From an uncultured Acidobacteriota bacterium (GTDB taxonomy: Bacteria > Acidobacteriota > Thermoanaerobaculia > Multivoradales > UBA5704), in NCBI GenBank assembly GCA_963718645.1, contig OY970373.1, positions 2,855,900-2,919,899 on the forward strand: a stretch of 64,000 nucleotides of DNA, in the 5' to 3' direction. Shown piece by piece: positions 16,782-59,401 of this stretch. Position 1 is the stretch's first letter, and each line of letters opens with the position of its first letter. The notes below the pieces were generated by a model that saw only the letters and a program-made list of their open reading frames with translations, had not been told where the DNA came from and ran no database searches. Position numbers and translations under genes: made by a program.

Positions 16782-16783
16782 GG

Positions 16784-25991: not shown

Positions 25992-27182
25992 GTGACCGAC
26001 GCGGATCATGCCATGGCAGCGGGCTTGCCGGCCAGAGAGGGAGCGCCCGCGCTCGCGCTGGTGCTCTCGGGCGGCGGCGCGCGGGGCGCCTACCAGACGG
26101 GGGTCCTCCGCGGCCTCGCCCGCCGCATCCCCGAGCTCCGCTTTTCGATCATTACCGGCGTCTCCGCCGGGGCGATCAACGCCGCGTTCATCGCCGCCCA
26201 CCCCGGCTCGCTCGCCGAGGCCACGGCGGACCTCTGCGAGGTCTGGGCGAACCTCCAGGTGGAGGACATCTTCCGGATCGACACCCCCTCGCTCGCCCGC
26301 CATTTCACCCGCTGGGCCACCCGGCTCGCCGCCGGGGGATCGCCGATGGCGCCGGCGGTCAGGGGGCTGGTGGACACCCGCCCGCTCCACGGCACGATCG
26401 AACGCGCCACCGCCACCGTCGACGGCGAGCTCATCGGCATCGAGCGAAACCTGGCGCGGGGGAGCCTCGACGCCTTCGCCTTGACGGCCCTCAACTACTC
26501 GACCGGGCAGACGGTCACCTGGGTGCAGGGGCGCGGCTTCCCCACCTGGCGCCAGCCGCGCCACCGGAGCTTCCACGCCCGGATCACCGCCGACCACGTC
26601 ATGGCCTCCGCCGCGCTGCCGATCTTCTTCCCGGCGGTCCGCCTGGGGGACGCCTGGTACGGCGATGGCGGGATCCGCCTGTCGACGCCGCTCGTCCCCG
26701 CCCTGCGCCTGGGGGCCACGCGCATCCTCGCGCTCTCGCCCCACTACGAGCTCAGTTTCGAGGAAGCCGAGCGCACCAAGACCCCCGGCTATCCGTCGCC
26801 GGCGCAGATCCTCGGCCACCTCATGGATTCGATCTTCCTCGACGTGCTCGACGAGGACCTGCGGCGGCTCGAGAGCGTCAACACTCTGCTCGCCGGGATG
26901 CCGCCCGAGAAGCACGGCGGCCTGCGCGAGGTGGCGATCCGCGTCCTGCGCCCCTCCTGCGACCTCGGCCTGCTCGCCGCCGCCTACGAGCCCCGCCTCC
27001 CCACCAGCTTCCGCTACCTCGTCCGCAGCCTGGGGACCAAGGACACCCACACCTCGGACTTCCTCAGCATGCTGATGTTCCAGCCGGACTATCTGCGGCG
27101 GCTGATCGACCTCGGCGAGGAGGACGCGGAGGCGCGGCTGGACACCATCCGCGACCTGGTGGGTGTGCCGGCGGCGGTGTAG
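25992..27182 (+). CDS. patatin-like phospholipase
   Basis: LVLSGGGARGAYQTGVL (GGxRG) and GVSAGA (GxSxG) motifs. Confidence 0.85.
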   Translation: MTDADHAMAAGLPAREGAPALALVLSGGGARGAYQTGVLRGLARRIPELRFSIITGVSAGAINAAFIAAHPGSLAEATADLCEVWANLQVEDIFRIDTPSLARHFTRWATRLAAGGSPMAPAVRGLVDTRPLHGTIERATATVDGELIGIERNLARGSLDAFALTALNYSTGQTVTWVQGRGFPTWRQPRHRSFHARITADHVMASAALPIFFPAVRLGDAWYGDGGIRLSTPLVPALRLGATRILALSPHYELSFEEAERTKTPGYPSPAQILGHLMDSIFLDVLDEDLRRLESVNTLLAGMPPEKHGGLREVAIRVLRPSCDLGLLAAAYEPRLPTSFRYLVRSLGTKDTHTSDFLSMLMFQPDYLRRLIDLGEEDAEARLDTIRDLVGVPAAV

Positions 27183-27300
27183 GCCCTCATCACCCCGGCC
27201 CTCTTCTCCCGTCCCCTCCCACCCTCCCTCACCGGGAGAAGAGGGAGAAGAGCAAGGGAGAAGCCTGGATCATGAGGGAACGGGGCTCCCCACTCAGCCG
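27182..27300. repeat. GGGAGAAGAGGG-type REP-like palindromic element, copy 1
   Basis: ggccctcatcaccccggCCCTCTTCTCCCgtcccctcccaccctccctcaccGGGAGAAGAGGGagaag... lies between convergent genes. Confidence 0.6.
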
Positions 27301-28022
27301 CGCGTTGCGAGCAGGGCCCTAAGACGCGCGATCTCGGCCTCCGCCGCCTCGGCTCGCTCCTCCGCCGCTTCGGCTCGTTCTTCCGGCATCGGCACCAGGC
27401 TGCCGTCGGGACGGAAGAGCCGCACCCAGTCGCCCTCCCTTCCGTCCACGACGCCGTGCCAGGCGCCGAGGAACGCCCCGAGCTGCTCGCTCCAGAGCCG
27501 TCCGTTCTCATCGGGCGGGATCGGCTGGTAGAACCGGCCCGCCAAGCGCAGCCCTTCCAGCGTCCCAGTCTCCGGATCGCACAGGAAGTACTCCGCCGTG
27601 CGAAAGACCCGGGCGTAGAGGTCCCGCTTCTCGGTGCGGTCTTTCCTGGCCGTGGAAGGAGAGAGCAACTCGACGATGACGTCCGGCAGCCGCCCACCCT
27701 CTTCCCAGGCGAGCCAGACCTTGCGCTCGCGGGCCGGGTCGACGCCGCCTACCCAGAAGACGTCCGGGCCGCGGAAGGCCCGCTCCGGCAAGCCCTTCTT
27801 CACCTCGTCCGCGACCTCCCGTGCCTGCTCCAGGGAGTAGTAGACGAACATGTCCCCGCCGGCGTAGAAGTCGGTCCTGCCCTGTTCCGCCATGACCTGG
27901 CGGAACAGCTTTCGCAGGAGAGGGTACTCCAGGGTATGCCACTCGGTCTCCAAGGGCTCTCCGTCGTCGTAGACGAGCTCGAAGGGCAGAGGCGCGAGCG
28001 TGGCGGCAGCGGGCTGGCTCAT
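27294..28022 (-). CDS. Uma2-family (DUF820) PD-(D/E)XK endonuclease-like protein
   Basis: LPDVIVELLSPST..DRTEKRDLYARVFRTAEYFLCDP. Start chosen at the internal ATG at 28022; the ORF-track start 28142 is an upstream extension. Confidence 0.7.
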   Translation of the reverse strand: MSQPAAATLAPLPFELVYDDGEPLETEWHTLEYPLLRKLFRQVMAEQGRTDFYAGGDMFVYYSLEQAREVADEVKKGLPERAFRGPDVFWVGGVDPARERKVWLAWEEGGRLPDVIVELLSPSTARKDRTEKRDLYARVFRTAEYFLCDPETGTLEGLRLAGRFYQPIPPDENGRLWSEQLGAFLGAWHGVVDGREGDWVRLFRPDGSLVPMPEERAEAAEERAEAAEAEIARLRALLATRG

Positions 28023-28117
28023 GGCATGCTTCCTTGCGGAGTCGTTTCTTGCGAGGATCTTATTCCGTATAGCCGGTAAAGGGAAGGGGGCCGGCTCGGG
28101 CGGGCGGCTCCCGCCCG

Positions 28118-29209
<1,092 letters not shown>

Positions 29210-29391
29210 TTCCCTCCGTCTGAGTCTCGATTGGAGTTTTCGGCGCCCTGGAAGAGGCCCCGGCGTATGGTATCGCGGTTAGGCCCCTCCCGCGACCCCG
29301 GAGCACGCCCAGACGGTACCACCGCCTCCGGTGCCGCGGTGATGGACCTCCCGTGGGTGTACCATCATCCGAAGACGGATCGGAGATGAAG

Positions 29392-29613
29392 ATGGCTACG
29401 ACACTGCAGATTGAGCTCCCCTCCAGCCTTTCCGAGGATGAAGCCAGGCTTCTCTTCGCGGTCAAGCTCTTCGAGGTCGGGAAGGTGTCCCTCGGCCAGG
29501 CGGCCAAGATCGCGGAGCTCTCGAAGCGCGCGTTCATGGAGATGCTCGGGCGCTATGGAGTACCGATTTTCAACTACTCCGCCGAGGAACTGCGGAGCGA
29601 GGTCGATTCTTGA
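29392..29613 (+). CDS. UPF0175-family antitoxin
   Basis: GGAG 6 nt upstream of the ATG at 29392. MATTLQIELPSSLSEDEARLLFAVKLFEVGKVSLGQAAKIA is typical of UPF0175. Confidence 0.7.
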   Translation: MATTLQIELPSSLSEDEARLLFAVKLFEVGKVSLGQAAKIAELSKRAFMEMLGRYGVPIFNYSAEELRSEVDS

Positions 29614-30059
29614 CGGAGCCCGTCGTCGTCGACAGTACCTGCCTGATAGGTCTCGACCACATCGACCGCCTTGATCTTCTCCCCAGACTCTTCGAGCCCG
29701 TATTCGCCCCTCCCGAGGTTGCCCGCGAATCCGGCCTCTCTCCTGAATGGTTGAAGATCGAGAAGCCCTCTAATCCAGCCCTCGTGGCCGCCCTCAAGGT
29801 GGCCGTCGATGACGGTGAAGCTGAAGCCATCGCGCTGGCGGCCGAGCATAGGTGGCGGATCGTTCTGGATGACCGGCGGGCTCGCGATGTGGCGCAGCGG
29901 ATGGATCTCAAGATCATAGGCACGGTAGGAATTCTGGTTCGCGCCAAACGAGCGGGACTCCTGCCGTGGGTCAAACCTTTGCTCAACGAGCTGACGGAGA
30001 AGGGCTTCCATCTCAGCGAAAGCCTGAAGAGGGAAGCGCTCCGCTTGATCGGCGAATAG
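29610..30059 (+). CDS. DUF3368-family PIN-like toxin (partner of UPF0175)
   Basis: TTGA start/stop overlap with the antitoxin. VVDSTCLIGLDHI...DDGEAEAIALA resembles a PIN-like acidic-residue pattern. Confidence 0.65.
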   Translation: MTEPVVVDSTCLIGLDHIDRLDLLPRLFEPVFAPPEVARESGLSPEWLKIEKPSNPALVAALKVAVDDGEAEAIALAAEHRWRIVLDDRRARDVAQRMDLKIIGTVGILVRAKRAGLLPWVKPLLNELTEKGFHLSESLKREALRLIGE

Positions 30060-30388
30060 AGCGCCCGATACCGCCGAACGCGAGCGGCGACCTCATTGAG
30101 CACCGCCGAATCAGTGGTCACCACCGCCGCGAAATAAGTCACGGCCGCCGGGAGCTGTGCTTTGACCGATCCGGCGGTCTGTCCACCGCCGAGGCCTGCG
30201 TGAGCACCGCCGAATCCGTGGTCACCACCGTCGCGGCGGTGGCGACTCCCGCCGGTTCCGCGCGTTCGACCGAACCGGCGGTGGTAACACCGCCGCGGCG
30301 GTGGTGACCGCCGCTGGATCCGCGCTCATCGCCGCCGCGCCGGTGGAGACGCACGGGGAGACCCTCTCGCTCGGTATGGCCGCGCCCC

Positions 30389-31039
30389 CTACGCCAGCGC
30401 CGCCGCCAGCTCCCCCGCCCGCGCCACCTTGAGGTCCGCCCTGATCCCGTCGAGCTTCGGCGGACGGGGGAAGCCCCATTCGACGAGAGCGAAGGCGCAG
30501 CCGGCGTTGTGGGCGGTCTCGGCGTCGATCCAGGTGTCCCCCACCAGGAGCAGCCGCGCGAGGGGGACGCCGAGCCGCTCGGCGAGGACGCGGAGGCCGG
30601 CGGGGTCGGGCTTGCGGGTGGGCAGGCTGTCGCCCCCCAGGATCTCGACGAAGAAGCGGGAGAGGCCGAGGCCGTCGAGGATCCGCCGGGAGAGGGCCTC
30701 TCCCTTGTTGCTCAGCAGGGCGAGCGGATAGCGCGGAGCCAGGGCCACCAGCATCTCCTCGATTTCCGGGTAGGCCGTGGTTTCGTCCAGGCAGACCTCA
30801 CCGTAGTGCCCAAGGTAGCGGGCGAGGGCTTGGTCGACCTGGTCCGGCGGGAACCCGGGGCCGAGCGCCCGCTCGACCAGCAGGCGCGCGCCCTCCCCCA
30901 CCATCGTCACCACGGTCTCCAGTGGGAGGGGAGGGAACCCGAGCTCCCCCCGCATCCGGTTGATGGCGGTGGTGATGTCGCGGCGGGAGTCGATCAGCGT
31001 GCCGTCGAGATCGAAGACGAGGGCGGCGGGGCGCTCCAT
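30389..31039 (-). CDS. HAD-family hydrolase (phosphoglycolate phosphatase-like)
   Basis: LVFDLDGTLIDS motif I and LLVGDTWIDAETA motif IV. Confidence 0.8.
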   Translation of the reverse strand: MERPAALVFDLDGTLIDSRRDITTAINRMRGELGFPPLPLETVVTMVGEGARLLVERALGPGFPPDQVDQALARYLGHYGEVCLDETTAYPEIEEMLVALAPRYPLALLSNKGEALSRRILDGLGLSRFFVEILGGDSLPTRKPDPAGLRVLAERLGVPLARLLLVGDTWIDAETAHNAGCAFALVEWGFPRPPKLDGIRADLKVARAGELAAALA

Positions 31040-31047
31040 CGCCCGGC

Positions 31048-31905
31048 TCAGGCGTCCAGGATCTCGGCCTTGACGTGGCTCTTCAGCACGCCCGCCTCGA
31101 AGCCGCGGTCGAGCAGGAGCTGCACGGCGCGGCGGCCGGCCTCGCCATAGTCGCGGGTCCAGTCGTTGACGTACATGCTCACGAAGCGGTCCGAGCGCAC
31201 CGGGTCGTCCTCGAGCCCCCGGGCGTAGCGGGTGGCGTAGCCGAGCGCCTCCTCGCGGTGATCGAGAGCGTAGTTAATGCTCTGGCTGAGCAGCCGGCAG
31301 AGGCGCAGCTTGAGATCGGGGTCGAGGTCCCGCTTGATGCCGTTGCCGCCCAGCGGCAGCGGCAGGCCGGTGTCCCCCTTCCACCACTCGCCGAGGTCCA
31401 CGACCTTGCGCAGGCCCATGTCGGCGTAGGTGAGCTGCCCCTCGTGGATCACCACCCCGGCGTCCGCCTCGCCGGCGAGCACCACGTCGAGGATGCGGTC
31501 GAAGGGGACGATCTCGGTCGTGACGTCCGGCTGCCAGAGGCGCAGGGCGAGATGGGCGGTGGTCAGCTCGCCGGGGATGGCGACCTTCAGGCCCGGCAGA
31601 TCGGCGCGGCCGAGAGGCTCGCGGGAGACGACGATCGGCCCGTAGCCGTCGCCGAAGCTGGCCCCCGAGGGCATGATCTGGTAGCGGTCCGCCAGGTGGG
31701 CGTAGCCGTGGAAGGAGAGGGCGGTGATCTCGTAGGTGCCCTGAAAGGCGGCCTGGTTCAGGCTCTCGATGTCCTGCAGGACGTGGCGGATCTCGAGCCC
31801 CTCGGTATCGAGCAGCCCCTGGGTGAGGGCGTAGAACATGAAAGCGTCATCCGAGTCCGGGCTGTGGGCGATGCGGATGGTGGTCGTGGTCGTCTCGGTG
31901 GTCAT
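31048..31905 (-). CDS. MqnA/MqnD-family menaquinone (futalosine pathway) enzyme, likely 1,4-dihydroxy-6-naphthoate synthase
   Basis: IRIAHSPDSDDAFMFYAL resembles the MqnD N-terminal signature; 285 aa. Confidence 0.6.
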   Translation of the reverse strand: MTTETTTTTIRIAHSPDSDDAFMFYALTQGLLDTEGLEIRHVLQDIESLNQAAFQGTYEITALSFHGYAHLADRYQIMPSGASFGDGYGPIVVSREPLGRADLPGLKVAIPGELTTAHLALRLWQPDVTTEIVPFDRILDVVLAGEADAGVVIHEGQLTYADMGLRKVVDLGEWWKGDTGLPLPLGGNGIKRDLDPDLKLRLCRLLSQSINYALDHREEALGYATRYARGLEDDPVRSDRFVSMYVNDWTRDYGEAGRRAVQLLLDRGFEAGVLKSHVKAEILDA

Positions 31906-32121
31906 GGCCCGGGAGGGTATCAGAATCGAGCGCCGCGGAATCGAGGACGCCCGCGCCCCCGGCAGAGGCCATCCGCCGGAGCCGAGGCCCGGAGGCGTCT
32001 CGCCAGGAATCAGGTAACTCCTTTGAATTCATCGCATTGAAGCCGTGGCACGCACCTTGAATTATATCTCCCGCGAAGGGCCCGATGGACGGTCTCCCCT
32101 TCAGTCATCAGGAGATACCCC

Positions 32122-32274
32122 ATGAAGACCCGCATCCTCGCGAAGATTTACGGGCCGGTCCTGCTGCTCACGGCGGCCCTGGCTCTGTCGTCCTGTATCA
32201 TCGTCGACCGCGGAGGCCATCACCGCCGCCATTGGGAGGCACCGGCCCCGTACAGCCAGGGGGTTCGCCCCTGA
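32122..32274 (+). CDS. small lipoprotein (50 aa), absent from the ORF track
   Basis: AGGAGA RBS 6 nt upstream of the ATG. Sequence MKTRILAKIYGPVLLLTAALALSSC| with an LSSC lipobox, then IIVDRGGHHRRHW... Confidence 0.5.
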   Translation: MKTRILAKIYGPVLLLTAALALSSCIIVDRGGHHRRHWEAPAPYSQGVRP

Positions 32275-32346
32275 GGCTCTGGCACATGGCTTGAATCGAT
32301 CCACCTGGGCGGGACGGTCCCGCGCCGTCCCGCTTTCAACCAGGAG

Positions 32347-33219
32347 GTGCCCGCCATGCCATCCAGTCTCGCTCAAGGGTCCCGACTCGCCCTGCTCCTC
32401 GCGGCGGCGCTGTCGCTCCCCGCCTGCTACGTCGGCCCGCCTCCCGGACATCCCTATCCTGACCGCTCGTACGACGACGACCGCGCCGAGAGCGGCCCGC
32501 CGGATCGGCCGGTGGATCAGATCGACGGCTTCGTCACGTTCGAAGGGCGCTGTCCGACCCTGCGCGAGCACGGCTCGGACGAGGTGTTCGCGCTGACCGG
32601 AAACACTCGCGCCCTGCGGCCGGGGGATCACGTCCGGTTGAGCGAGCGCGAGGCCGAGGGGAACCCCTGCGGCGGCGACGCGCCGGCCCTGGAAGTCACG
32701 AGGATCGAGGCGATCTGGCAAGGCGACGGGCACCGCGACGCCTACTTCGACGCCCGCCGCGACGGCGACTTGGACCGCTTCCTGGCCGCGAGTCGCGACC
32801 GCGGCGGCTGGTACGCCGAGCGCTATGCCTACCTCGCCGGCAACGTCGACCGCCCTGGTGAGGATCGCCGCTATCAGAGCCCGCCGTACGTGCCCAACAT
32901 CCCAAACGCGCCCAATCCGAACGAGCCCGACGATCCGAACGGCCGGAGCGCCGAGCCGGACCGCCCGCCCGGGGCACCGGACCGCCCGGACATGGAGTCT
33001 GACGACGACGAGGAGCGGGAGCAGCTCAGCGTCACCGGCCGGCTCGAGCTCGGCGGCCAGTGCCCGGTGATCCGCACTCCGCAAGGGGACTCCTGGGATG
33101 TGCTCGGAGATCTCGGCGATTACCGGAACGGCGACCGGGTGAACGTGATCGGCGTGGCCACGGGGCGCTCCGCCTGCGGCGGCAGAGCGCTCACGATCAG
33201 CGAGATCCGGGGACGCTAG
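32347..33219 (+). CDS. lipoprotein with two internal repeats (DUF5818-like G.CP...G..Y.L.G....GD.V.V.G modules)
   Basis: Signal peptide with an LPAC lipobox. Repeats GRCPTLREHGSDEVFALTGN...GDHVRL and GQCPVIRTPQGDSWDVLGDLGDYRNGDRVNVIGV. Confidence 0.6.
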   Translation: MPAMPSSLAQGSRLALLLAAALSLPACYVGPPPGHPYPDRSYDDDRAESGPPDRPVDQIDGFVTFEGRCPTLREHGSDEVFALTGNTRALRPGDHVRLSEREAEGNPCGGDAPALEVTRIEAIWQGDGHRDAYFDARRDGDLDRFLAASRDRGGWYAERYAYLAGNVDRPGEDRRYQSPPYVPNIPNAPNPNEPDDPNGRSAEPDRPPGAPDRPDMESDDDEEREQLSVTGRLELGGQCPVIRTPQGDSWDVLGDLGDYRNGDRVNVIGVATGRSACGGRALTISEIRGR

Positions 33220-33221
33220 GG

Positions 33222-33405
33222 CGCCCCCGCCCGGACCCTCACCCCTGGCCCCTCTCCCTTCCCCTCCCGCCCTCCCTCACAGGGAGAGGGGAACCCCCGC
33301 CCCCTCAGGATCCAGGCCTTTCTCTTGCCTTTCTCCCTCTTCTCCCGGTGAGGGAGGGTGGGAGGGGACGGGAGAAGAGGGCCGGGGTGATGAGGGCCGC
33401 AACTT
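33222..33405. repeat. GGGAGAAGAGGG-type REP-like element, copy 2 (reverse orientation, plus a related CCCCTCTCCC/GGGAGAGGGG hairpin)
   Basis: 33343-33399 is the exact reverse complement of the core of copy 1. It lies between convergent genes. Confidence 0.6.
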
Positions 33406-33409
33406 AGAA

Positions 33410-34861: not shown

Positions 34862-34882
34862 CGGGTTCTCTCCCTGGTTTGG

Positions 34883-35500: not shown

Positions 35501-35503
35501 ACC

Positions 35504-35842
35504 CTAGCGCTCCGCGGCGATCGCCGCGGCGACCGACTCGTAGGTGGGGAACAGGTCGCTCAGGCGGGCGACCTGCAGGAGCTTGCGGATGCGCTCGGAC
35601 GGATTGACCAGGATCAGCTCGCGCTTGGAGTTGCGGAAGCGCCCCAGGTACCCCACCAGCTCGCCGATGCCCGTCGAGTCGATGAAATTGATCTTGGAGA
35701 AGTCGATGAGCACGTGCCCGCGGTCGTCCGAGAGGGTCCGTTCGAGGGTCTGGGCGAAGAACTGCGCGCTCTCCCCGAGCTTGATGACCCCTTCCACGTT
35801 GAGGAGGGTGAAGCCGTCCAGGTGCCGTTTCTCGACGATCAT
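35504..35842 (-). CDS. STAS-domain anti-sigma-factor antagonist (SpoIIAA-like)
   Basis: LIDFSKINFIDSTGIGELV STAS signature; 112 aa. Confidence 0.75.
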   Translation of the reverse strand: MIVEKRHLDGFTLLNVEGVIKLGESAQFFAQTLERTLSDDRGHVLIDFSKINFIDSTGIGELVGYLGRFRNSKRELILVNPSERIRKLLQVARLSDLFPTYESVAAAIAAER

Positions 35843-35932
35843 TGGGCCTTGGGTCTTGCCGTTGCGGCGGAGCGCAGTCTAACACGCCGGAGCGCCGGGC
35901 TTCACCTGTAGAATGGAGCGCGGGGAGAGCCG

Positions 35933-36589
35933 ATGAAGATCCTGATCGCCGATGACCAAGCGCTCTTCCGCTACAGCCTGCGCAGCCTGCTCGAAGCCCA
36001 CGGTCTCGAGGTGCTCGGCGAAGCCAGAAACGGCCGCGAAGCCGTCGACCTCTCCCGCAAGCTCAAGCCCGACGTCGTCCTGATGGATCTCTCGATGCCC
36101 GAGATGGACGGCTTCGCCGCCACCCGGCTGATCAGCGCCGGCCAGCCCGAGGTCAAGGTGGTGATCCTCACCGCCTCCGACGAGGACTCCAAGCTGTTCG
36201 AAGCGATCAAGTCCGGCGCTCAAGGGTACCTGCTGAAGAACCTCGAATCGGCGGAGTTCTTCAGCCTGCTCGAGGGGGTCAAGCGCGGCGAGCCGGCGCT
36301 CACCCCCGCGCTCGCCCGCAAGCTCCTCCAGGAGTTCGCCCGTCCCGCCCAGAGCTCGGCGCCGCAGCAGGACCCCGACGCGCTGACCGACCGCGAGCGC
36401 GAGGTGCTCGAGCTGCTGGTCCACGGCGTCACCTCGAACCGCAAGCTCGCCAAGCAGCTCGGCGTCAGCGAGAACACCGTCAAATTCCACGTCCGCAACA
36501 TCCTCGACAAGCTCCACCTCCACAACCGCGCGCAGGTGGTGGGCTACGCCATCCGCCACCGCATGGTGGAGACGGCGACGGAGCCCTGA
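35933..36589 (+). CDS. NarL/FixJ-family response regulator (REC + LuxR HTH)
   Basis: MKILIADDQ...DVVLMDLSMPEMDG in the REC domain. The C-terminus LTDREREVLELLVHGVTSNRKLAKQLGVSENTVKFHVRNIL is a LuxR-type HTH. Confidence 0.85.
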   Translation: MKILIADDQALFRYSLRSLLEAHGLEVLGEARNGREAVDLSRKLKPDVVLMDLSMPEMDGFAATRLISAGQPEVKVVILTASDEDSKLFEAIKSGAQGYLLKNLESAEFFSLLEGVKRGEPALTPALARKLLQEFARPAQSSAPQQDPDALTDREREVLELLVHGVTSNRKLAKQLGVSENTVKFHVRNILDKLHLHNRAQVVGYAIRHRMVETATEP

Positions 36590-36604
36590 GCCGGGATCGA
36601 AGCG

Positions 36605-37804
36605 GTGGCGAACCGATCCAGGAAGACGGAGCGCGGCCCCCTCGCCGGCGTCCGCGTCGTCGACGCCTCGCGCGTCCTCGCCGGCCCCTATCTCGCCATG
36701 CTGCTGGGGGACCTCGGTGCGGACGTGATCAAGATCGAGAAGCCGGACGGCGGCGACCAGACGCGCGCCTGGGGACCACCCTGGGTGGGCGAGGGAGAGA
36801 ACCGCGTCAGCGCCTACTTCGTGTCGGCGAACCGCAACAAGCGGTCGGCGGCGATCGACCTCAAGCGGCCGGAGGGGCGGGCGGCGTTCGTCCGCCTGCT
36901 CGAAGGCGCGGACATCCTGGTCGAGAACTTCCTCCCCTCCGAATGGCGGCGGCTCGGCTTCCGCGGCGGAGGCTTCACGCGCGCCCATCCCCGGCTCGTG
37001 CAGTGCACGGTGACCAGCTACGGCACGGCGGGCCCCGAGGCCGACCGCCCGGCCTACGACGTGGTCCTGCAGGCGGAATCCGGGCTGATGTCCCTCACCG
37101 GCTTCGAGACCGGCGAGCCCGTGCGGGTGGGGATCGCGATCGTCGACGTCCTCTCCGCCCTCTACGGCCTCGCCGCCGTGCTCGCGGCGCTCCGCCGGCG
37201 GGACGCCACCGGCAAGGGGAGCCGCGTCGAGGTCGCGATGGCGGACGCCGGCGCGTCCTTCCTCTCTTACGCCGCGCAGTCGTGGCTCGCCGACGGCCGG
37301 CAACCCGCCCGCCTCGGCTCCGCGCATCCGAATCTCGCGCCCTACCAGGCCTTCCGCGCCGCCGACGGCTGGCTGATCGTCGGCGTCGGCAGCCAGGCGC
37401 TCTGGCGCCGCTTCTGCGCCGCCATCGAGCGCCCCGCCCTCGCCGACGATCCCCGCTTCGCCAGCGGCGAGTCGCGGGTGAGGAACCGCGCCGGCCTCGA
37501 CCGCCTCCTGGGAGAGCTCTTCGCCACTCGCCTGGTCGCGCACTGGGACGCCGCCCTGCGGGCCCACCGCGTCCCCGCCGGACCGCCGGCGACCGTCGGC
37601 GAGGCTGTCGAAACAGCGCGCCGGCGGGGCCAGGTGATGGACCTCCCCGCCGGCGCCTACGGGGTCCTCCCCACCATCGCCGCTCCATTCCTTTTCGACG
37701 GCGAACGCGCCGCTCCCTCGGCCTCGGCTCCGGCCCTCGGCGAGCATACGGAAGCGGTCCTGCGCGAGGCAGGGATGAGCCGCGAGGAGATCGGAAAGCT
37801 GTGA
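36605..37804 (+). CDS. CoA-transferase family III (CaiB/BaiF) protein
   Basis: GVRVVDASRVLAGPYLAMLLGDLGADVIKIE N-terminal signature. Confidence 0.8.
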   Translation: MANRSRKTERGPLAGVRVVDASRVLAGPYLAMLLGDLGADVIKIEKPDGGDQTRAWGPPWVGEGENRVSAYFVSANRNKRSAAIDLKRPEGRAAFVRLLEGADILVENFLPSEWRRLGFRGGGFTRAHPRLVQCTVTSYGTAGPEADRPAYDVVLQAESGLMSLTGFETGEPVRVGIAIVDVLSALYGLAAVLAALRRRDATGKGSRVEVAMADAGASFLSYAAQSWLADGRQPARLGSAHPNLAPYQAFRAADGWLIVGVGSQALWRRFCAAIERPALADDPRFASGESRVRNRAGLDRLLGELFATRLVAHWDAALRAHRVPAGPPATVGEAVETARRRGQVMDLPAGAYGVLPTIAAPFLFDGERAAPSASAPALGEHTEAVLREAGMSREEIGKL

Positions 37805-39105
37805 AGTTCTTTGTCCCCCTGGCCCTGATTCTGGCCCTCGCCGGATGCCTGACCGCCGCTCCCAATGTGCCGGCGGCGGCTCCCGCGGCGGCGACCGGAC
37901 CGGTCGCGCTCAAGGACGGCGACCGCATCCTGGTGCTCGCGCCTCATCCCGACGACGAGGTGCTGGGCGCCGGCGGGGTCCTGCTCGAAGCGGCGCGGCG
38001 CGGGCTGCCCATCCGGGTTGTCTTCCTCACTCACGGCGACAGCAACGAGTGGTCGTTCCTCGCCTACCGCAAGCGCCCGGTGCTGACTCCGGGCGGCGCC
38101 CTGGCCATGGGCGCGATCCGTCACCAGGAGGCCCTGGCGGCGGCGGCGCTCCTCGGGGTTCCCGCCCAGAACCTCAGCTTCCTCGGCTACCCGGATTACG
38201 GCACGCTCGACATCTGGCGCTCCCACTGGGGCTCGCGCCCACCAGCCCGCGGCCGTCTCACCCGCGCCCGCGCAGTCCCCTATGCGAACGCGTTCCGTCC
38301 GGGATCGCCGTACAAAGGGGAGGAGATCCTCGCCGATCTCGAGAAGATCCTGCGCGATTTCCGGCCGACCCGGATCTTCGTCTCACACCCGGCCGATCAC
38401 CACCCGGACCACGCGGCCCTCTACCTCTTCACCCGCGTGGCGCTCTGGGATCTCAAGGATGAGGTGACAGCGACGATCCATCCGTTCCTGGTCCACTATC
38501 CCGGCTGGCCGGCCAAGGGGCTCCGTCCGAATCAGGAGCTGACACCTCCGGACCGCCTGCGCGCCGGCTTCCTCTGGCAATCCCGAGAGCTCGCGCCGGC
38601 CGACGTCGCCGCCAAGCGCCTCGCCCTCGCCGCGCACCGCACACAGTACGGCTACAGTGCCTCGCGGCTCCTCCCTTTCGTCCGCCCCAACGAGCTGTAT
38701 GGAGATCTGACCGTGCCGGATCTGGCGGCGGCGGGCGGAGCCGTCGATTTGCAGGGGCTCAGCCTTCGGAGGGTGGGGAATCAACTGGAGATCGGAATGG
38801 CGCTCCGGGAGCCGCTCGGCGAGGAATCCGCCGTCTCGCTCTCCGCCGTCGGTTATCGCCCCGACGTCAGTTTCGCGGCGATGCCGAAGCTGGAGATCCG
38901 CATCGCACCACACGCCTGGACGGTCCGCGACCAGGGACAGCTCCTTTCACGCACCGCGGCCTGGGGCGGCACTCAGGGTCGAACGCTAGCCGCGCGCATC
39001 CCCCTCGCCTCGCTGAACGATCCCCGCCGCCTGTTCCTCCAGGTGCGCACCGGCTCCCGCCGCTCGGCCTCGGGGCAGACGCCGTGGTGGATCGTGGAGC
39101 TCTGA
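37801..39105 (+). CDS. PIG-L/LmbE-family N-acetylglucosaminyl deacetylase lipoprotein with a C-terminal extension
   Basis: GTG start overlapping the upstream stop (GTGA). Lipoprotein signal VKFFVPLALILALAGC. LVLAPHPDDEVLGAGG is the HPDDE motif. Confidence 0.7.
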   Translation: MKFFVPLALILALAGCLTAAPNVPAAAPAAATGPVALKDGDRILVLAPHPDDEVLGAGGVLLEAARRGLPIRVVFLTHGDSNEWSFLAYRKRPVLTPGGALAMGAIRHQEALAAAALLGVPAQNLSFLGYPDYGTLDIWRSHWGSRPPARGRLTRARAVPYANAFRPGSPYKGEEILADLEKILRDFRPTRIFVSHPADHHPDHAALYLFTRVALWDLKDEVTATIHPFLVHYPGWPAKGLRPNQELTPPDRLRAGFLWQSRELAPADVAAKRLALAAHRTQYGYSASRLLPFVRPNELYGDLTVPDLAAAGGAVDLQGLSLRRVGNQLEIGMALREPLGEESAVSLSAVGYRPDVSFAAMPKLEIRIAPHAWTVRDQGQLLSRTAAWGGTQGRTLAARIPLASLNDPRRLFLQVRTGSRRSASGQTPWWIVEL

Positions 39106-39132
39106 CGAGCCGCCTCACCGCCAGCGGTGCAC

Positions 39133-40173
39133 CTACCTCCGGATCCACCCCGCGATGTCGGCGATCACCGCCTCGTCGACGTGCCCGGGCTTCTCGTACT
39201 CCGCGGGCAGGCTCTTCCCCTCCCCTGTCATGAACAGGTGGTTGAGCTTGGGGTAAGTCTTGAAGGTCACGTCCGGCCGGCCGGCGAGGGCTTTCTGCCA
39301 GGCCGCAAGGTTGTCGAGGGTGACTTGGTAATCGCGCTCCCCCTGAAGGATCAGCAGCGGCTGCTTCAGCGCCCTGGCGGCAGTTGGGGGGTCGTAGCCG
39401 CGCAGATCGAGCCAGTAGGAGTCGGGAGCGCCGAGCGCGGTGCCGGTCTCGCCGGGCTTCAGCGCCTTGACCCGCGCGACCTCGGCCTTCACGGATTCGA
39501 AGCGGCTCTTCTCCGCGTCGGTGACGGTGCCATCCGCGGCGTCGAGGTAGGCGATCTGCTCGAGGATGATGTCCTCCAGGGGCTTGGCCGCGCCGGCCAT
39601 CACGATCAGCCCGGCGAGCTGGGGATCGCGGGCGCCGATGCGCGGGATCAGCATGCCCCCCAGGCTGTGGCCGAGGACGAAGACGCGCTTGGGATCGATC
39701 CTCTCGGTGTGGCGGAGCAGCTCGGCGGCGGCGAGGGCGTCGTCCACCGTCTCCTGCTGGACGGTGAAGTCCTTCACCCCGGCGAGCTGGGCGCCGTGCT
39801 GCCGGGTCCGCTTCTCGTAGCGGAGCACGGCGACGCCGCGCGAGGCGACCCCCCAGGCGAGATCGCGGAAGGGCTTGTTCTTCTCCACTGTCTCGTCGCG
39901 GTCGTTGGGGCCCGAGCCGTGGACCAGCACCACGGCGGGGAAGGGGCCCTGCCCCACCGGTACCGACAGGGTGCCGGGGAGCGCCCACTCGCCGGCGCCC
40001 ACCGTCACGTCGCGCTCGCGGAAAGCGTCCTTGTGGACGTAGGCGGCGGGAGGCGCGGTGTCGGGCGCCGCGGCGGCATCCCGGGAGGGGGGCGCGGCGA
40101 GGAGCGGAGTCTGGGCCGGCAGGAGGGAGGGCAGGAAGAGCAGAGACAGGAGAAGACCGGCGGCGCGTTTCAT
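39133..40173 (-). CDS. secreted alpha/beta-hydrolase
   Basis: Signal peptide, GHSLGG nucleophile elbow, and VVLVHGSGPNDRDE. Confidence 0.75.
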   Translation of the reverse strand: MKRAAGLLLSLLFLPSLLPAQTPLLAAPPSRDAAAAPDTAPPAAYVHKDAFRERDVTVGAGEWALPGTLSVPVGQGPFPAVVLVHGSGPNDRDETVEKNKPFRDLAWGVASRGVAVLRYEKRTRQHGAQLAGVKDFTVQQETVDDALAAAELLRHTERIDPKRVFVLGHSLGGMLIPRIGARDPQLAGLIVMAGAAKPLEDIILEQIAYLDAADGTVTDAEKSRFESVKAEVARVKALKPGETGTALGAPDSYWLDLRGYDPPTAARALKQPLLILQGERDYQVTLDNLAAWQKALAGRPDVTFKTYPKLNHLFMTGEGKSLPAEYEKPGHVDEAVIADIAGWIRR

Positions 40174-40196
40174 GCCGGCGATCCTATAATGCCCTC

Positions 40197-42716
40197 ATGG
40201 AGTACGAACCGCTTCCCGAGCGCCGCCCCCCCACCGTCTCCGAGCCGCCCCCCCGGCGACCCTGGCGCCTGCTGCGCTGGACCTGGCCGGTGGTCGCGGC
40301 GCTGCTGGTGGGCGCGGTCAGCGGCGTCGCCATCGCGGCGGCTATCCACATGCCGCAGGTGGACACCCTCGCGACCTATACGCCGCGGATGGTGACCCAG
40401 CTCTTCGACAAGAACGGCCACGTCTTCACCACCTTCGCCCGCGAGCGCCGCGTGATGCTGAAGGAGGGGGAGATGCCGCGGGTGATGGAGCAGGCGCTCG
40501 TCGCCTCCGAGGACTCCAACTTCTTCCAGCACGGCGGGATCGACGCCCTGGGCATCGCCCGCGCGGCGCTCACCGACGTCCGCGCCCACCGGGTGAAGGA
40601 GGGGGCGTCGACGATCACCATGCAGCTCTCCCGCACCCTCTTCCTCTCCCGCGAGCGCACCTGGCGCCGCAAGGTCGAAGAGGCGTTCGTCGCCGTCGAG
40701 TTGGAGAAGAACTACACCAAGCAGCAGATCCTTACGCTCTACCTGAACCTGGTCAACCTCGGCCATGGCAACTACGGCGTCGAGGCGGCCTCCCGCTACT
40801 ACTTCAACAAGCCGGCTTCCAAGCTGACTCTTCCGGAGGCGGCGATGCTGGTGGGGATCATCCCGGCGCCCAGCCACTACAGCCCCTACCGCACGCCCGA
40901 GCTAATGGAGCGCCAGCGCAACCGCGTGCTGCGCCGCATGCTCGAGGAGCGCTACATCCAGCAGCCGGAGTACGAGCGGGCGCTGGCGCAGCCGATCCTG
41001 GTCGAACCCCAGGAGCCCGAGGAGAGCTTTGCCCCCTATTTCGCCGAGGAGGTGCGCAAGGGCCTGGAGAAGGACTACGGCGCGATCAGCCTCTACGAGG
41101 GGGGCCTGCAGGTGCAGACCACCCTCGATCCACAGATCCAGAAGTCGGCCGAGAGCGCCATCCACGCCGGGCTGCTGAAGATCGACCACCGCCGCGGCTG
41201 GCGCGGCCCGATCGCCGAGATCAAGGAAGCGGACATCGACAACCAGCAGCTACCGACCTGGGGGCAGTTCAAGGTCGTGCCCGGCCGCTGGTATCAGGGG
41301 CTGGTGCTCGACTCGGGACCGAAGAGCGCCACGGTCAAGATCGCCAAGGAGACCTTCACCCTCGGTCCCGAGGGGATCGCCTGGACCGGAAAGCATCAGC
41401 CGGGCGACCTGGTCAAGCGCGGCGCTATCGCCTGGTTCCGCTTCGAGCTTCCGGAGACGAAGGTGGCACCGGGAAAGAAGGGGGCCGCCGCTCCGGCGAC
41501 TCCCCCGCCCACGCCCGCGGCCGGGCCGCTACGGCTGATGCTCGAGCAGCAGCCGAAGATGGAGGCCGCCGCGCTGGTGCTCGAGAACAGCACCGGCGCC
41601 ATCCGCGCCATGGTGGGCGGCTGGGACTTCGACCGCAACAAGTTCAACCGCGTCACCCAGGCGCGCCGGCAGGTGGGCTCGGCGTTCAAACCGTTCGTCT
41701 ACGGCGCCGCCCTCGAGGCCGGATGGACCCCGGCCGACACGCTCCTCGACGCACCGACCTCGTTCATCGGCGCCGACGGCAAGCTCAGCTACCGCCCCGA
41801 GAACTACTATCACAAACACTACGGCATCGTGACGCTGCGGCGGGCGCTGGAGCAGTCGATCAACGTCCCGGCGGTGAAGCTATTCGAGCTGGTGGGAGGC
41901 AAGCGGGTGGTCGACTTCGCCCATCGCGCCGGTGTGCAGGACCCGATCCCGACCTGGCCCAGCGTGGCGCTCGGCTCGACCGACCTGACGCCGATCGAGA
42001 TGGCCTCTGCCTATTCCACCATCGCCAATTCCGGGACCCACATCGAGCCGTTCCCGCTGGAGAAGGTCTCGACTCCCGACGGCCAGGTGCTGTTCCAGCA
42101 CTTCCCCGCCACCTACATCGCCACCACACCGCCGGTGGCCTACGTGCTCACCCACATGATGGAAGGGGTGATCGATCACGGCACGGCGTACGACATCCAC
42201 GACCTGCCGCTCGACATCGCGGGCAAGACCGGCACCACCGACGACTACTCCGATGCCTGGTTCATCGGCTTCACGCCGCACTACACGATCCTCACCTGGA
42301 TCGGCTACGACGTGAAGCGCTCGCTCGGCGCCGGCATGAGCGGCGCCGTGGCCGCCCTGCCGATGTGGCGGGCGATCGCCGAGGACGGCCTCGCCACCGG
42401 CTGGCTGGTCAAGGGGGACAGCTTCCAGGTGCCGCCGGGAGTGATCCAGCGCGACGTCGAGTACTACTCGGGGTTGCTCTCGGGGCAGGAGGGGCGGGTG
42501 ATCAAGGAGGCCTTCGTAGCGGGCACCGAGCCCAACCGGCAGTACAACTCGCAGTGGTCGACGATCAGCAGCCTCCCCTGGTACCAGCAGAAGGCCTTCT
42601 ACATTCCGAAGCAGGGCGAGAACATGCCGAACAAGACCAACGGCGCGCAGACCCAGCCCGAGCCGCCGTCGACCCCCGGACCGCAGGAGGCGCCGGCCGA
42701 GCCGCCGCCGCCGTAA
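40197..42716 (+). CDS. mrcA: class A penicillin-binding protein 1A (transglycosylase + transpeptidase)
   Basis: The N-terminal TM and GT51 motifs (EDSNFFQHGGID, RKVEEA) are followed by a transpeptidase domain; 839 aa. Confidence 0.85.
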   Translation: MEYEPLPERRPPTVSEPPPRRPWRLLRWTWPVVAALLVGAVSGVAIAAAIHMPQVDTLATYTPRMVTQLFDKNGHVFTTFARERRVMLKEGEMPRVMEQALVASEDSNFFQHGGIDALGIARAALTDVRAHRVKEGASTITMQLSRTLFLSRERTWRRKVEEAFVAVELEKNYTKQQILTLYLNLVNLGHGNYGVEAASRYYFNKPASKLTLPEAAMLVGIIPAPSHYSPYRTPELMERQRNRVLRRMLEERYIQQPEYERALAQPILVEPQEPEESFAPYFAEEVRKGLEKDYGAISLYEGGLQVQTTLDPQIQKSAESAIHAGLLKIDHRRGWRGPIAEIKEADIDNQQLPTWGQFKVVPGRWYQGLVLDSGPKSATVKIAKETFTLGPEGIAWTGKHQPGDLVKRGAIAWFRFELPETKVAPGKKGAAAPATPPPTPAAGPLRLMLEQQPKMEAAALVLENSTGAIRAMVGGWDFDRNKFNRVTQARRQVGSAFKPFVYGAALEAGWTPADTLLDAPTSFIGADGKLSYRPENYYHKHYGIVTLRRALEQSINVPAVKLFELVGGKRVVDFAHRAGVQDPIPTWPSVALGSTDLTPIEMASAYSTIANSGTHIEPFPLEKVSTPDGQVLFQHFPATYIATTPPVAYVLTHMMEGVIDHGTAYDIHDLPLDIAGKTGTTDDYSDAWFIGFTPHYTILTWIGYDVKRSLGAGMSGAVAALPMWRAIAEDGLATGWLVKGDSFQVPPGVIQRDVEYYSGLLSGQEGRVIKEAFVAGTEPNRQYNSQWSTISSLPWYQQKAFYIPKQGENMPNKTNGAQTQPEPPSTPGPQEAPAEPPPP

Positions 42717-42895
42717 AGGCCCTCATCACCCCGGCCCTCTTCTCCCAGCCCTCCACCCACCCTGCCAGGGAGAAGAGGGAGAAAGGCAAAAGCAAAAGTG
42801 CCCTTTTTGAGGGTGGGGGTGCCCCTCTCCCAGGCCAGGGCGGGCGGAGGGCTGGGAGAGGGGTCAGGGGTGAGGGCTTTTGCCCTTCCGCCCCA
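42717..42895. repeat. GGGAGAAGAGGG-type REP-like element, copy 3 (plus a CCCCTCTCCC/GGGAGAGGGG hairpin)
   Basis: ggccctcatcaccccggccctcttctcccagccctccacccaccctgccagggagaagagggagaaag ... cccctctcccaggcc...gggagagggg lies between convergent genes. Confidence 0.6.
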
Positions 42896-45377: not shown

Positions 45378-45470
45378 GAACACGGACGCTCAGGGACTGA
45401 CACGGACGAGCACGGACCGGCTCTGCTCGATGTCCGTGTTCGTCCGTGTTCGTCCGTGTTCGTCGGTCCT
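45378..45470. repeat. CACGGAC-type REP-like palindromic element, copy b
   Basis: gaacacggacgc...gacacggacgagcacggacc ... gtccgtgttcgtccgtgttcgtccgtgttcgtcgg lies between the pth stop and the rpsF start. Confidence 0.6.
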
Positions 45471-45472
45471 GC

Positions 45473-47908: not shown

Positions 47909-47953
47909 AGCGTGGGGTTCACCCTTTCGGGCGACCGGCACGGGACCGCAAGC

Positions 47954-59400: not shown

Positions 59401-59401
59401 C

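Follow-up and report, generated by a model that had tools for sequence, protein, structure and literature searches.

The window, a stretch of 64,000 nt from an uncultured Acidobacteriota bacterium (Thermoanaerobaculia, UBA5704; GCA_963718645.1, OY970373.1 positions 2,855,900-2,919,899), contains three copies of a palindromic repeat family that is real and widespread in Thermoanaerobaculia. The repeated unit is an inverted heterotypic doublet, in which a hairpin arm of type A is paired with an arm of type B or C. The class of element is a known one (REP/BIME/REPIN-like), and the family itself is new. We estimate a probability of roughly 0.7 that this is a dispersed, non-coding, BIME/REPIN-like family whose doublets, as single-stranded DNA hairpins, are mobilised in trans.

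The three intergenic elements of the window contain five arms in total, three of type A and two of type B. Their positions are as follows.

27164-28117: 954-nt segment that comprises a new C-terminus of patatin (VPAAV*), copy 1, Uma2 on the - strand (27294-28022), and a small GC hairpin
27182-27291, + strand: copy 1, an A arm, a linker, and the beginning of the partner arm
27184-27245, + strand: A arm of copy 1, with flank CCCTCATCACCCC (27184-27196), pyrimidine stem (27199-27210), C-rich loop (27211-27233), and purine stem (27234-27245)
27246-27291: linker/remnant of copy 1
33221-33398: copy 2, a complete heterotypic doublet with its B arm on the + strand and its A arm on the - strand
33236-33291, + strand: B arm of copy 2, with flank (33236-33245), stem (33249-33258), loop (33259-33281), and stem (33282-33291), preceded by an outer extension (33221-33235)
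33292-33334: spacer of copy 2
33335-33396, - strand: A arm of copy 2
42718-42878: copy 3, a complete heterotypic doublet with its A arm on the + strand and its B arm on the - strand
42720-42779, + strand: A arm of copy 3, with flank (42720-42732), stem (42735-42746), loop (42747-42767), and stem (42768-42779)
42780-42821: spacer of copy 3
42822-42876, - strand: B arm of copy 3

Copy 1 is a doublet truncated at 27291, 2 nt short of the Uma2 stop codon, and the G at 27182 with which it starts is the final base of the patatin TAG stop codon. The methyltransferase stop codon TGA (42864-42866) falls within the B arm of copy 3, whose flank and linker encode the terminal SPHP and TGA of the methyltransferase gene (42864-44093, - strand). 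An earlier note had placed three copies here, and their sequences were confirmed at those positions. It had also described the core of copy 2 as the exact reverse complement of copy 1; the two copies are indeed reverse complements (91% over 110 nt) and share an identical 67-nt core from GGCCCTCATC to GGGAGAAGAGGGAGAA. The extra hairpin that it assigned to copies 2 and 3 is present, but it is the second, inverted arm of the doublet and not an extra. GGGAGAAGAGGG occurs exactly six times in the window, as three inverted pairs (27199/27234, 33335/33370, and 42735/42768); when one mismatch is allowed there are eight matches against 0.91 expected, and none of 100 shuffles reaches eight. There are four occurrences of GGGAGAGGGG, which form two inverted pairs (33249/33282 and 42822/42854; 0.72 expected), and three of GGCCCTCATCACCCCGGCC (0.16 expected).

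A hairpin-pattern scan of one genome per species yielded at least 113 loci in at least 28 assemblies among the matches listed, and the family-wide counts of arms, loops, doublets, and contexts given below rest on these matches. The family is thus not confined to the window; such confinement is what the earlier note had named as counting against its own reading. Almost all of the assemblies are Thermoanaerobaculia/Acidobacteriota species representatives, up to 14 loci occur in a single assembly among the matches listed, and only one viral contig matched. As in REP families, the copies are extragenic and dispersed, many to a genome. At gathering score, Rfam returned no match to the elements (the only match in the window was a tRNA) and none for four related loci; in E-value mode, only eukaryotic miRNA-hairpin matches far under threshold appeared. 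This repeat family of Thermoanaerobaculia is apparently so far undescribed.

Each arm is ~60-65 nt long and contains, in order, a C-rich 5' flank CCCTCA(x)CCCC, 2-4 nt, a homopyrimidine stem CCCTCT(y)CCC, a C-rich loop of 18-23 nt, and the complementary homopurine stem. Among the matches listed, stems are 9-13 bp and loops mostly 18-21 nt, with 3-nt loops in a minority of five arms. Three arm types can be distinguished by their matched x/y insertions, which are TCA/TCT in A, none in B, and CT/CT in C. The stem type is strictly tied to the flank type across the arms among the matches listed, and the loop classes are common to all three types. At nearly all positions of the 15-nt flank CCCTCATCACCCCGG, conservation reaches at least 90% (n=133 copies among the matches listed), and this conservation lies outside what the search pattern imposed. 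The consensus 3' flank of the arms is AGAAcAGCAAGAA. In most copies the 4 nt ahead of the 5' flank read AAGA; CGGA, GAGG, TTGG, and others occur as well, and GTAGG before the flank is restricted to one subfamily that includes copy 1. Neither a GT[AG]G nor a CGTC tag at the hairpin foot was found as a family feature among the matches listed, and the arms are not short palindromes of 20-40 nt with 2-5-nt loops. The earlier description of these elements as REP-like extragenic palindromes had the class right, but the classical tag and short palindrome are absent and no RAYT was found nearby.

The ~70-bp core that had been proposed as the unit gives way to a heterotypic inverted doublet with a flank-to-flank length of ~140-165 nt, and outer modules make some copies longer. 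Among the matches listed, 46 of 62 doublets are A+B, 15 are A+C, and one is A+A. Spacers are most often 27-29 nt long, and the linker AGAAcAGCAAGAAC... is conserved. Two different repeat types in alternating orientation with conserved linker motifs are what defines BIMEs. Entire doublets at separate loci are 93-98% identical, both within and between assemblies, with unrelated outer flanks. Loops are more similar within a doublet than between doublets (0.79 versus 0.66, with none of 1000 permutations as high), and in one relative, L118, the loops have been lost from both arms of a doublet. In line with the hairpins described in the earlier note, the doublets are predicted to fold as one hairpin (z -4.8 to -6.8). 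Copy 2 is predicted to form, as DNA, one long bulged hairpin of -62 kcal/mol (z -5.4), and the predicted fold of copy 3 has a z of -4.8 as DNA and -6.8 as RNA. The modelled single-strand fold of the doublet is a long hairpin with two small bulges, both on the A side. Single arms, with z from +0.2 to -4.0 against shuffled sequence, show no clear gain in stability. As in REPINs, what is copied as a unit is an inverted doublet with the predicted fold of a long hairpin.

The family is gained and lost at orthologous sites, and the presence/absence polymorphism that the earlier note had suggested looking for was seen in relatives. The closest relative found (~91% DNA identity) lacks the element at each of the three window sites, and one of these sites has been filled by a separate event in another species; no insertion event between near-identical genomes was caught in comparisons whose closest relative stands at this distance. 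The 954-nt segment with copy 1 and the Uma2 gene is missing from two relatives (L116 and L048) that share both flanking genes. The FAD-oxidase/DUF5818 junction spans 189 nt in the window, whereas L116 (96% aa) has 6 nt there and L117 has 9 nt. In L118 the arms are present in the order opposite to that of the window, and the palindrome at this junction in L119 is unrelated. The methyltransferase/PBP1A junction is reduced to 4 nt with a B-flank remnant in L123. In L124 it is filled by a doublet orthologous to that of the window, whose A stem has changed in a compensatory way (CCCTCCTCTCCC/GGGAGAGGAGGG) and in which two inter-arm G.T pairs are now Watson-Crick. Methyltransferase orthologues with 85-86% identity have the C-terminus ..PHP*, which would be encoded by CCCTCACCCCTGA, and this shared end points to an old, vertically kept insertion. 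The doublet can thus persist by vertical descent and donate the last codons and the stop codon to a gene. Long residence at one site through mostly vertical descent is likewise typical of REPINs. At the methyltransferase site the element has long been passed on in this way, so some of the polymorphism stems from loss and not from transposition.

These properties can be compared with those of known systems. BIMEs/REPINs of E. coli and Pseudomonas (with RAYT, or TnpA-REP) are likewise extragenic, multicopy, inverted hairpin repeats with a short conserved linker that form one long imperfect hairpin. In E. coli, different REP types (Y with Z2) are paired around the RAYT gene, and the halves are of different types in both systems (Y with Z1/Z2 in E. 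coli, A with B/C here). Both also have singletons that are remnants, no target duplication, and vertical inheritance with occasional gain or loss. The window family differs in its ~60-nt arms (20-40 nt in REPs, which makes the arms about threefold longer), loops of 18-23 nt, homopyrimidine/homopurine stems, lack of a 5' GT[AG]G tag, lack of a RAYT beside any sampled copy, and its occurrence in another phylum. In Acidobacteria and Planctomycetes, class-3 TnpA-Y1 genes have atypical hairpins without a tag on their flanks, with ~600 copies in Solibacter usitatus (PMC6006769), and TIR-associated tyrosine transposases (TIRYT) are carried by Acidobacteria (PMC3733652). Compared by description only, the hairpins beside these genes share with the window family the phylum, the untagged 'atypical' structure, and the high copy number. 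Class-3 TnpA-Y1/TIRYT systems have a status between insertion sequence and REPtron, which is the kind expected for the window family. The 5' foot reported for them is CnGA, whereas only some copies of the window family have it (CGGA before the copy 2 B arm) and most have AAGA. CGTC-tagged REPs (Di Nocera et al. 2013) are also abundant palindromes, often dimers, for which no dedicated transposase gene was found, but the window family lacks the CGTC tag and differs in length and composition. Integron attC sites are alike in working principle only, as imperfect palindromes just past a stop codon that, when folded as a single strand, have one-sided extrahelical bulges and a variable centre; the window family has no R/L core sites (GTTRRRY), cassette arrays, or integrase context, and its copies are dispersed.

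We propose that the doublet would be mobile but non-autonomous, being copied in trans in the form of a hairpin of single-stranded DNA. The agent would likely be host-encoded, probably a single-copy HUH/Y1 transposase of the RAYT, TIRYT, or class-3 TnpA kind, and would insert the doublet without target duplication. Within a 3' UTR the hairpin would probably double as a transcript-end structure, for termination or 3'-end protection. Our searches for a mobilising enzyme covered ~0.9 Mb around the arms (the ORFs of at least 113 loci and of the window), and sampling of this extent makes them a weak test. Within this sample, a phmmer search with E. coli RayT against ORFs of at least 70 aa gave a single low-complexity match only, a scan of the ORFs for the HUH...Y motif gave none, and neither a class-3 TnpA-Y1 gene nor a recurrent protein family adjoining the arms was found. 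A variant that we consider unlikely is REPIN-like without a RAYT. Here an obligately heterotypic, doubly bulged single-stranded hairpin, whose mirror-repeat stems each follow their near-copy, would be recognised strand-specifically by an as yet unfound enzyme or host protein, or would switch between hairpin and quadruplex/i-motif; the matched flank/stem variants (A, B, C, and CCT/CTC of L124) would be the recognition code.

It is rather unlikely that the family is an ordinary TIR-type MITE (Correia, ERIC, or Nezha-like), in which the doublet would be an internally deleted IS with long TIRs used by a DDE transposase encoded elsewhere. A size of 140-230 nt, near-identical dispersed copies, and presence/absence at orthologous sites would suit such an element. 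So would the inverted termini, which (flank plus outer extension) measure 13-45 nt or more, reach ~45 nt outward from the CCCTCA flank, and extend to ~80 nt with the outer CATAGGCGCTAACTT module. Correia/ERIC-type MITEs are also intergenic, 100-200 nt long, with long inverted termini and transcript hairpins, and alter neighbouring gene or transcript ends. Their target duplications (TA for Correia) and homotypic termini, however, have no counterpart in the window family. A target-site duplication was found neither in any of 73 doublets among the matches listed nor at the three filled/empty comparisons, and its absence at the filled/empty pairs fits insertion of the IS200/IS605 type rather than the DDE type. 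Systematic pairing of different types (A with B or C) would be unusual for TIRs, and every arm is itself a hairpin. Moreover, no arm pair encloses a transposase-sized ORF in the loci sampled, and no full-length parent IS sharing the termini was found in the same ~0.9 Mb.

The placement of the arms relative to genes could instead reflect a host-functional transcript-end element (bidirectional terminator, mRNA 3'-end protector, or Rho-loading site) that is kept by selection and spread by recombination instead of transposition, a reading that we regard as quite unlikely. The window arms begin 0-18 nt past stop codons, and many copies elsewhere lie no more than 25 nt past them. The 80 scorable units among the matches listed comprise 47 tandem, 23 convergent, and 10 divergent contexts against a gene-junction background of 297, 92, and 97; arm sites favour gene 3' ends and are scarce at divergent junctions. 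Convergent junctions, where the earlier note had put all copies, are confirmed by Pfam for the three window pairs (patatin/Uma2, DUF5818/FAD_binding_4, and PBP1A (Transgly+Transpeptidase)/methyltransferase) but are no rule for the family. Relatives L120-L122 have plain canonical bidirectional terminator hairpins at the FAD-oxidase/DUF5818 junction, and the arm sense strand is similar to a Rho-utilisation site in its composition (~66% C and 6% G over 50 nt). For E. coli BIMEs, attenuation of transcription and stabilisation of mRNA are reported. On the other hand, the hairpins lack a U-tract, and tandem contexts hold both orientations (30 antisense versus 17 sense). The 10 divergent units lie in promoter regions. 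The same convergent genes are only 4-9 nt apart in the closest relatives, so the element is dispensable, and 27+12 nt are near-invariant across species, far beyond what a terminator needs. The elements do not have the form of an intrinsic terminator (a short-loop GC-rich hairpin with a U-tract): a terminator scan was empty at all three, and the consensus 3' flank is AGAAcAGCAAGAA.

It is very unlikely that the element would act as non-B DNA rather than as a hairpin, with a G-quadruplex formed by its G-rich strand, an i-motif by its C-rich strand, or a triplex by the mirror-repeat purine/pyrimidine stem. The antisense strand of each arm has four short-looped G-runs (GGGAGAAGAGGGCCGGGGTGATGAGGG in A, GGGAGAGGGGCAGGGGTGAGGG in B, and similar in C), and the five arms hold 8 of the window's 17 canonical quadruplex motifs. 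The three common stems are perfect mirror repeats, and the flank nearly copies the pyrimidine stem. These are purely properties of the sequence, however, and a non-B structure would compete with hairpin/cruciform pairing for the bases involved. Four C-runs of their own occur in only 12 of 136 loops among the matches listed, and the T-to-A changes between flank and stem would mismatch in a pyrimidine-motif triplex; C+-rich triplexes are unstable at neutral pH.

A protein-coding repeat or a chance low-complexity match can be dismissed: spurious ORFs do run across the elements, as the earlier note had reported, and the B flank is truly translated in a conserved frame as the last 3-4 residues of the methyltransferase, but loops of 18, 19, 20, 21, and 23 nt and arms in both orientations leave no common frame, which refutes coding for the element as a whole, and the copies sit between genes with proper GC3 signatures, with chance excluded by the shuffles.

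The BIME/REPIN-like family described here is a clean, well-delimited repeat family for a large, abundant, uncultured soil bacterial group, and we know of no catalogue of intergenic repeats in Thermoanaerobaculia. These repeats break assemblies, as several contigs end in them, and they both give spurious ORF calls and change real gene ends (methyltransferase ..PHP* in many species). Between close relatives, they serve as markers of gain and loss. Should a cognate transposase come to light, the 'domesticated replicator' biology of the REPIN-RAYT type would reach past Proteobacteria and Cyanobacteria. If no transposase exists, the family would, like the CGTC repeats, be evidence for another route by which hairpin repeats spread.

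The repeats that the earlier note had described at three stretches of the window are present as described. The sequence GGGAGAAGAGGG and its complement form exactly three inverted pairs in the window, and GGGAGAGGGG makes up two more. If one mismatch is accepted, GGGAGAAGAGGG has 8 matches in the window (0.91 expected), and the 19-mer GGCCCTCATCACCCCGGCC occurs 3 times (0.16 expected). There are five arms in the window, and a relaxed scan of its 64 kb found no further ones. Each arm has a C-rich 5' flank, which is CCCTCATCACCCC in A arms and CCCTCACCCC in B arms. After a gap of 2-3 nt comes a homopyrimidine stem (CCCTCTTCTCCC for A, CCCCTCTCCC for B), and a C-rich 21-23-nt loop separates it from the complementary homopurine stem. 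The elements and the gene next to copy 1 are as follows.

27182-27291: copy 1, at the patatin/Uma2 junction, with the doublet structure of copies 2 and 3, cut off 2 nt before the Uma2 stop codon
27294-28022, minus strand: Uma2-family endonuclease gene, within a 954-nt segment (27164-28117)
33221-33398: copy 2, at the DUF5818/FAD-oxidase junction, an A arm and a B arm, inverted, ~42 nt apart
42718-42878: copy 3, at the PBP1A/methyltransferase junction, an A arm and a B arm, inverted, ~42 nt apart

Copies 1 and 2 are reverse complements, 91% identical over 110 nt and fully identical in a 67-nt core, and the homology ends exactly at the 27291 cut-off. The flanking genes and their convergent orientation were confirmed by Pfam.

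The repeats are not restricted to the window. We scanned a species-representative genome collection with the A hairpin pattern, allowing any loop of 15-30 nt, and at least 113 stretches matched, from 28 assemblies among the matches listed (matched loci, and relatives sharing the window's junctions, carry L-numbers below). Nearly all labels among the matches listed are Thermoanaerobaculia, Thermoanaerobaculaceae or Acidobacteriota, and the best matches of the window proteins (75-100%) are in Thermoanaerobaculia MAGs. The odd labels are probably not true exceptions: the Polyangia- and Gemmatimonadales-labelled contigs are short, the former has a flank identical to a Thermoanaerobaculaceae locus, and the Pirellulaceae match is a different palindrome. 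A phage origin was rejected, as the single viral contig matched bears a different palindrome. Across 136 A units, conservation reaches at least 90% at nearly all positions of CCCTCATCACCCCGG, the 15 nt before the searched pattern, and is moderate in AGAAcAGCAAGAA, the 13 nt after it; the loops, with 68% C, belong to a few classes common to different species. Type B accounts for 61 further hairpins in the listed loci, and a third type, C (flank CCCTCACTCCCC, stem CCCCTCTCTCCC), for 24. No Rfam family matches the repeats in the window and related loci. In the literature, the motif strings match unrelated eukaryotic papers only, with no bacterial context found, and we found no description of Thermoanaerobaculia repeats. 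We conclude that the family is real and lineage-wide, and consists of non-coding palindromic repeats.

In the A, B and C arms of these loci, flank type is strictly tied to stem type. Type A carries a TCA insertion in the flank (CCCTCA-TCA-CCCC) and TCT in the stem (CCCTCT-TCT-CCC), type B has neither insertion, and type C has a CT insertion in both. The flank thus nearly repeats the pyrimidine stem in direct orientation, with A in place of T. All three common stems are perfect mirror repeats. In a fourth arm variant, at L124 2880-2925, flank (CCCTCACCTCCCC) and stem (CCCTCCTCTCCC/GGGAGAGGAGGG) are both unlike type A.

The dispersed unit is a doublet of two unlike, inverted arms. Among 62 doublets, 46 are A+B, 15 are A+C and one is A+A, with none lacking an A arm; their spacers cluster at 27-29 nt, and the median flank-to-flank length is ~145 nt. 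Loops are more similar between arms of the same doublet than across doublets (0.79 vs 0.66; 0 of 1000 permutations reached the observed value), and in one doublet of L118 the loops were lost from both arms together. Whole doublets are 93-98% identical at separate loci, within one assembly and between assemblies, with unrelated outer flanks. Secondary-structure prediction bears out the hairpin claimed earlier and extends it: copies 2 and 3 are predicted to form a single long hairpin, as DNA or RNA (z -5.4, -4.8 and -6.8), in which the A arm (flank, stem, loop) pairs with the B arm (loop, stem, flank), and small bulges remain at the A-specific TCA and TCT. Single arms folded alone are not clearly better than shuffles (z +0.2 to -4.0). 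The same inverted-doublet architecture, with unlike REP types paired, is described for E. coli BIMEs and for REPINs (PMC6006769, PMC3116915).

Further outer modules are common to many copies, namely ..CCCCCGCCCAAGA and, beyond it, CATAGGCGCTAACTT.., which makes the family a mosaic. In one subfamily, a conserved outer module (CATAGGCGCTAACTT..GAGAG..CCCCCGCCCAAGA) adds ~40 nt to the arms, giving elements of ~220 nt; the module lies on the outer side of the arms in L001, L010, L018, L040, L053, L062, L078, L086, L087, L091, L094 and L099. Other arrangements were also seen. L066 (1367-2126) has five head-to-tail 180-nt repeats, each of one B arm and ~100 nt of other sequence, and the orthologous site in L022 has one A+B doublet. 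At L020 3139-3617, L110 4976-5379 and L040 6993-7505, two A arms stand in inverted orientation with ~400 nt between them, and their outer flanks match. The interiors of these pairs are either a non-coding segment repeated in the same chromosome (80% identity) or 21-24-nt tandem repeats, with no Rfam match; in L020 and L040, non-coding repeats and no genes are enclosed.

Comparison of orthologous sites revealed presence/absence polymorphism, which the earlier note had proposed as a sign of mobility, at all three window junctions. A JGI contig (L116 and L123) is collinear with window 21917-42466 at a DNA identity of ~86-93%, mostly 88-92%, and has no arms at all. The FAD oxidase/DUF5818 junction takes the following states.

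Window: 189 nt, with copy 2
L116 (96% aa): 6 nt between stop codons
L117 (87%): 9 nt between stop codons
L118 (87%): B+A doublet, order opposite to the window, short loops
L119 (90%): unrelated 270-nt palindrome
L120-L122 (83-86%): plain A-tract/GC-hairpin/T-tract, classical bidirectional intrinsic terminators (L120 2941-2997, L121 2941-3003, L122 2953-3046)

These states indicate that the junction was filled independently at least twice. At the patatin junction, the segment at window 27164-28117 gives patatin a new C-terminus and also holds copy 1, the Uma2 gene and a small hairpin. The whole segment is missing in both relatives that have both flanking genes: in L116 the two genes overlap by 4 nt, and L048 has a GTAGGG..CCCTAC repeat instead. 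The patatin C-terminus is VPAAV* in the window vs P* and DS* in L116 and L048.

At the methyltransferase/PBP1A junction, L123 has 4 nt between stop codons, and its AAGCCTTCCTGACCCC followed by TTACGG aligns with AAGCCCTCACCCCTGACCCC, the B arm's first 20 nt, a remnant that looks like a deletion footprint. L124 (92% aa) has an orthologous doublet with a B arm 97% identical and a duplicated linker. Its A-arm stem is altered on both sides, from CCCTCTTCTCCC/GGGAGAAGAGGG to CCCTCCTCTCCC/GGGAGAGGAGGG, and where the window has two inter-arm G.T pairs, L124 has A-T and G-C. In methyltransferase orthologues with identities as low as 85%, the protein ends in ..(S/N/G)PHP*, the residues that CCCTCACCCC and a following TGA encode, and more distant ones end in ..GRK(P)*. 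From these protein ends, with DNA from the window and L124, the B flank appears to have long provided the methyltransferase with its final codons and stop codon. Between genes, at orthologous sites, copies of the family come and go, and some have stayed in place and become joined to gene ends. We saw no target-site duplication at the compared window junctions or in 73 doublets, and a DDE-type MITE is a less well supported account of this gain and loss.

To define gene context, we predicted genes by a crude GC3-based method that recovers those of the window, and considered the 80 A units with both neighbours called.

Tandem: 47 A units; background 297
Convergent: 23 A units; background 92
Divergent: 10 A units; background 97

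Tandem units are antisense (30) or sense (17) to genes, and singletons show the same context pattern as other units. Placement at convergent junctions, as claimed earlier, holds for the three window copies and does not hold as a family rule (23 of 80). Gene 3' ends are favoured; a convergent junction or a fixed orientation is not obligatory. All five window arms are sense to the adjacent gene end, a trivial consequence of a doublet at a convergent junction; a sense-strand 3'-UTR RNA element was rejected as a rule, given the mixed orientation family-wide. The hairpins lack a following U-tract, and the terminator scan found nothing at the three window elements. A mainly functional role as a terminator or Rho site, to which the preference for 3' ends would be owed, is less well supported. 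So is a quadruplex or i-motif element: stem and flank together contain a canonical quadruplex sequence motif in every arm (8 of the 17 motifs in the window are in arms), and a conserved structure of the loop was rejected, with four C-runs in only 12 of 136 loops. A triplex involving the flank is unlikely, given its A.A-T mismatches and its need for protonated C.

Instead, we favor a non-autonomous element that would spread by way of a single-stranded hairpin on which an HUH/Y1-type enzyme acts in trans, with possible secondary effects of the doublets on transcript ends. We infer this spread from the hairpin architecture and its asymmetric bulges, from the lack of duplications, and from precedent in the phylum. 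In Acidobacteria and Planctomycetes, class-3 TnpA-Y1 genes have atypical untagged hairpins at their flanks, with ~600 copies in Solibacter (PMC6006769), and TIR-associated tyrosine transposases are reported in several Acidobacteria (PMC3733652); CGTC repeats have no transposase at all (PMC3733652). Likened by description, the class-3 TnpA-Y1 type is a plausible candidate enzyme class. A phmmer search with E. coli RayT against all ORFs of at least 70 aa in the 113 loci listed and the window gave one low-complexity match (E = 0.012), rejected as a RAYT, and no HUH...Y motif of the kind known from Y1 classes turned up in a scan. Clustering of 663 gene-like ORFs of the loci found no recurrent family beside the arms except ordinary paralogous ones. 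The Uma2 endonuclease was rejected as the cognate enzyme, with homologues in only 4 of the 113 loci listed. We note that this negative result is weak, since RAYTs are typically single-copy and only ~0.9 Mb around the arms was searched.

Other repeats accompany the arms. The CACGGAC family that the earlier note had mentioned (window 16764-16843, 45378-45480, 54509-54629 and 59266-59407) consists of blocks of 10-nt-period repeats (GAACACGGAC) in inverted pairs. Analogous 10-mer arrays (GGGACAnnAG) lie just 3' of A arms in L068, L070, L077, L092, L096 and L104, so such arrays and A arms are physically linked elsewhere. A GTAG-tagged REP-like palindrome family starting with GTAGGGG or GTAGGGA (GTAGGGGCGGCC...GGCCGCCCCTAC) is distinct from the arms; it occurs at L048 7141-7170 and L119 2965-3225, the latter being the 270-nt palindrome at the copy-2 junction, and adjoins A arms in L002, L023, L047, L055 and L066. 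The window also contains a 300-nt direct repeat (11215-11514 and 13220-13519, 2 kb apart, 77% identity), a coding repeat at 56090-57815 (..ACCGACGGCGGCGCCTCCTGG.., S/T-x-D-G-G-x-x-W, BNR/Asp-box-like, at least 8 times), and a tRNA gene (47838-47909, minus strand), the sole window Rfam match at gathering score. Positions 1-2000 have a GC of 0.51 vs ~0.65-0.74 in the remaining window and may be foreign or non-coding DNA.

The REP-like reading of the earlier note holds as a general kind, in the BIME/REPIN-like doublet architecture. Unlike classical REPs, the family has no tag and the wrong size, which places it outside the formal definition. By analogy, it would work like BIMEs and REPINs, and we file it as a new family of that general kind and not as a proven REPIN-RAYT member, because of the missing tag, the size, and a RAYT search made only around the arms. 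The family is not categorically new. It is useful for annotation of this clade, and is a possible entry to REPIN-like biology outside Proteobacteria.
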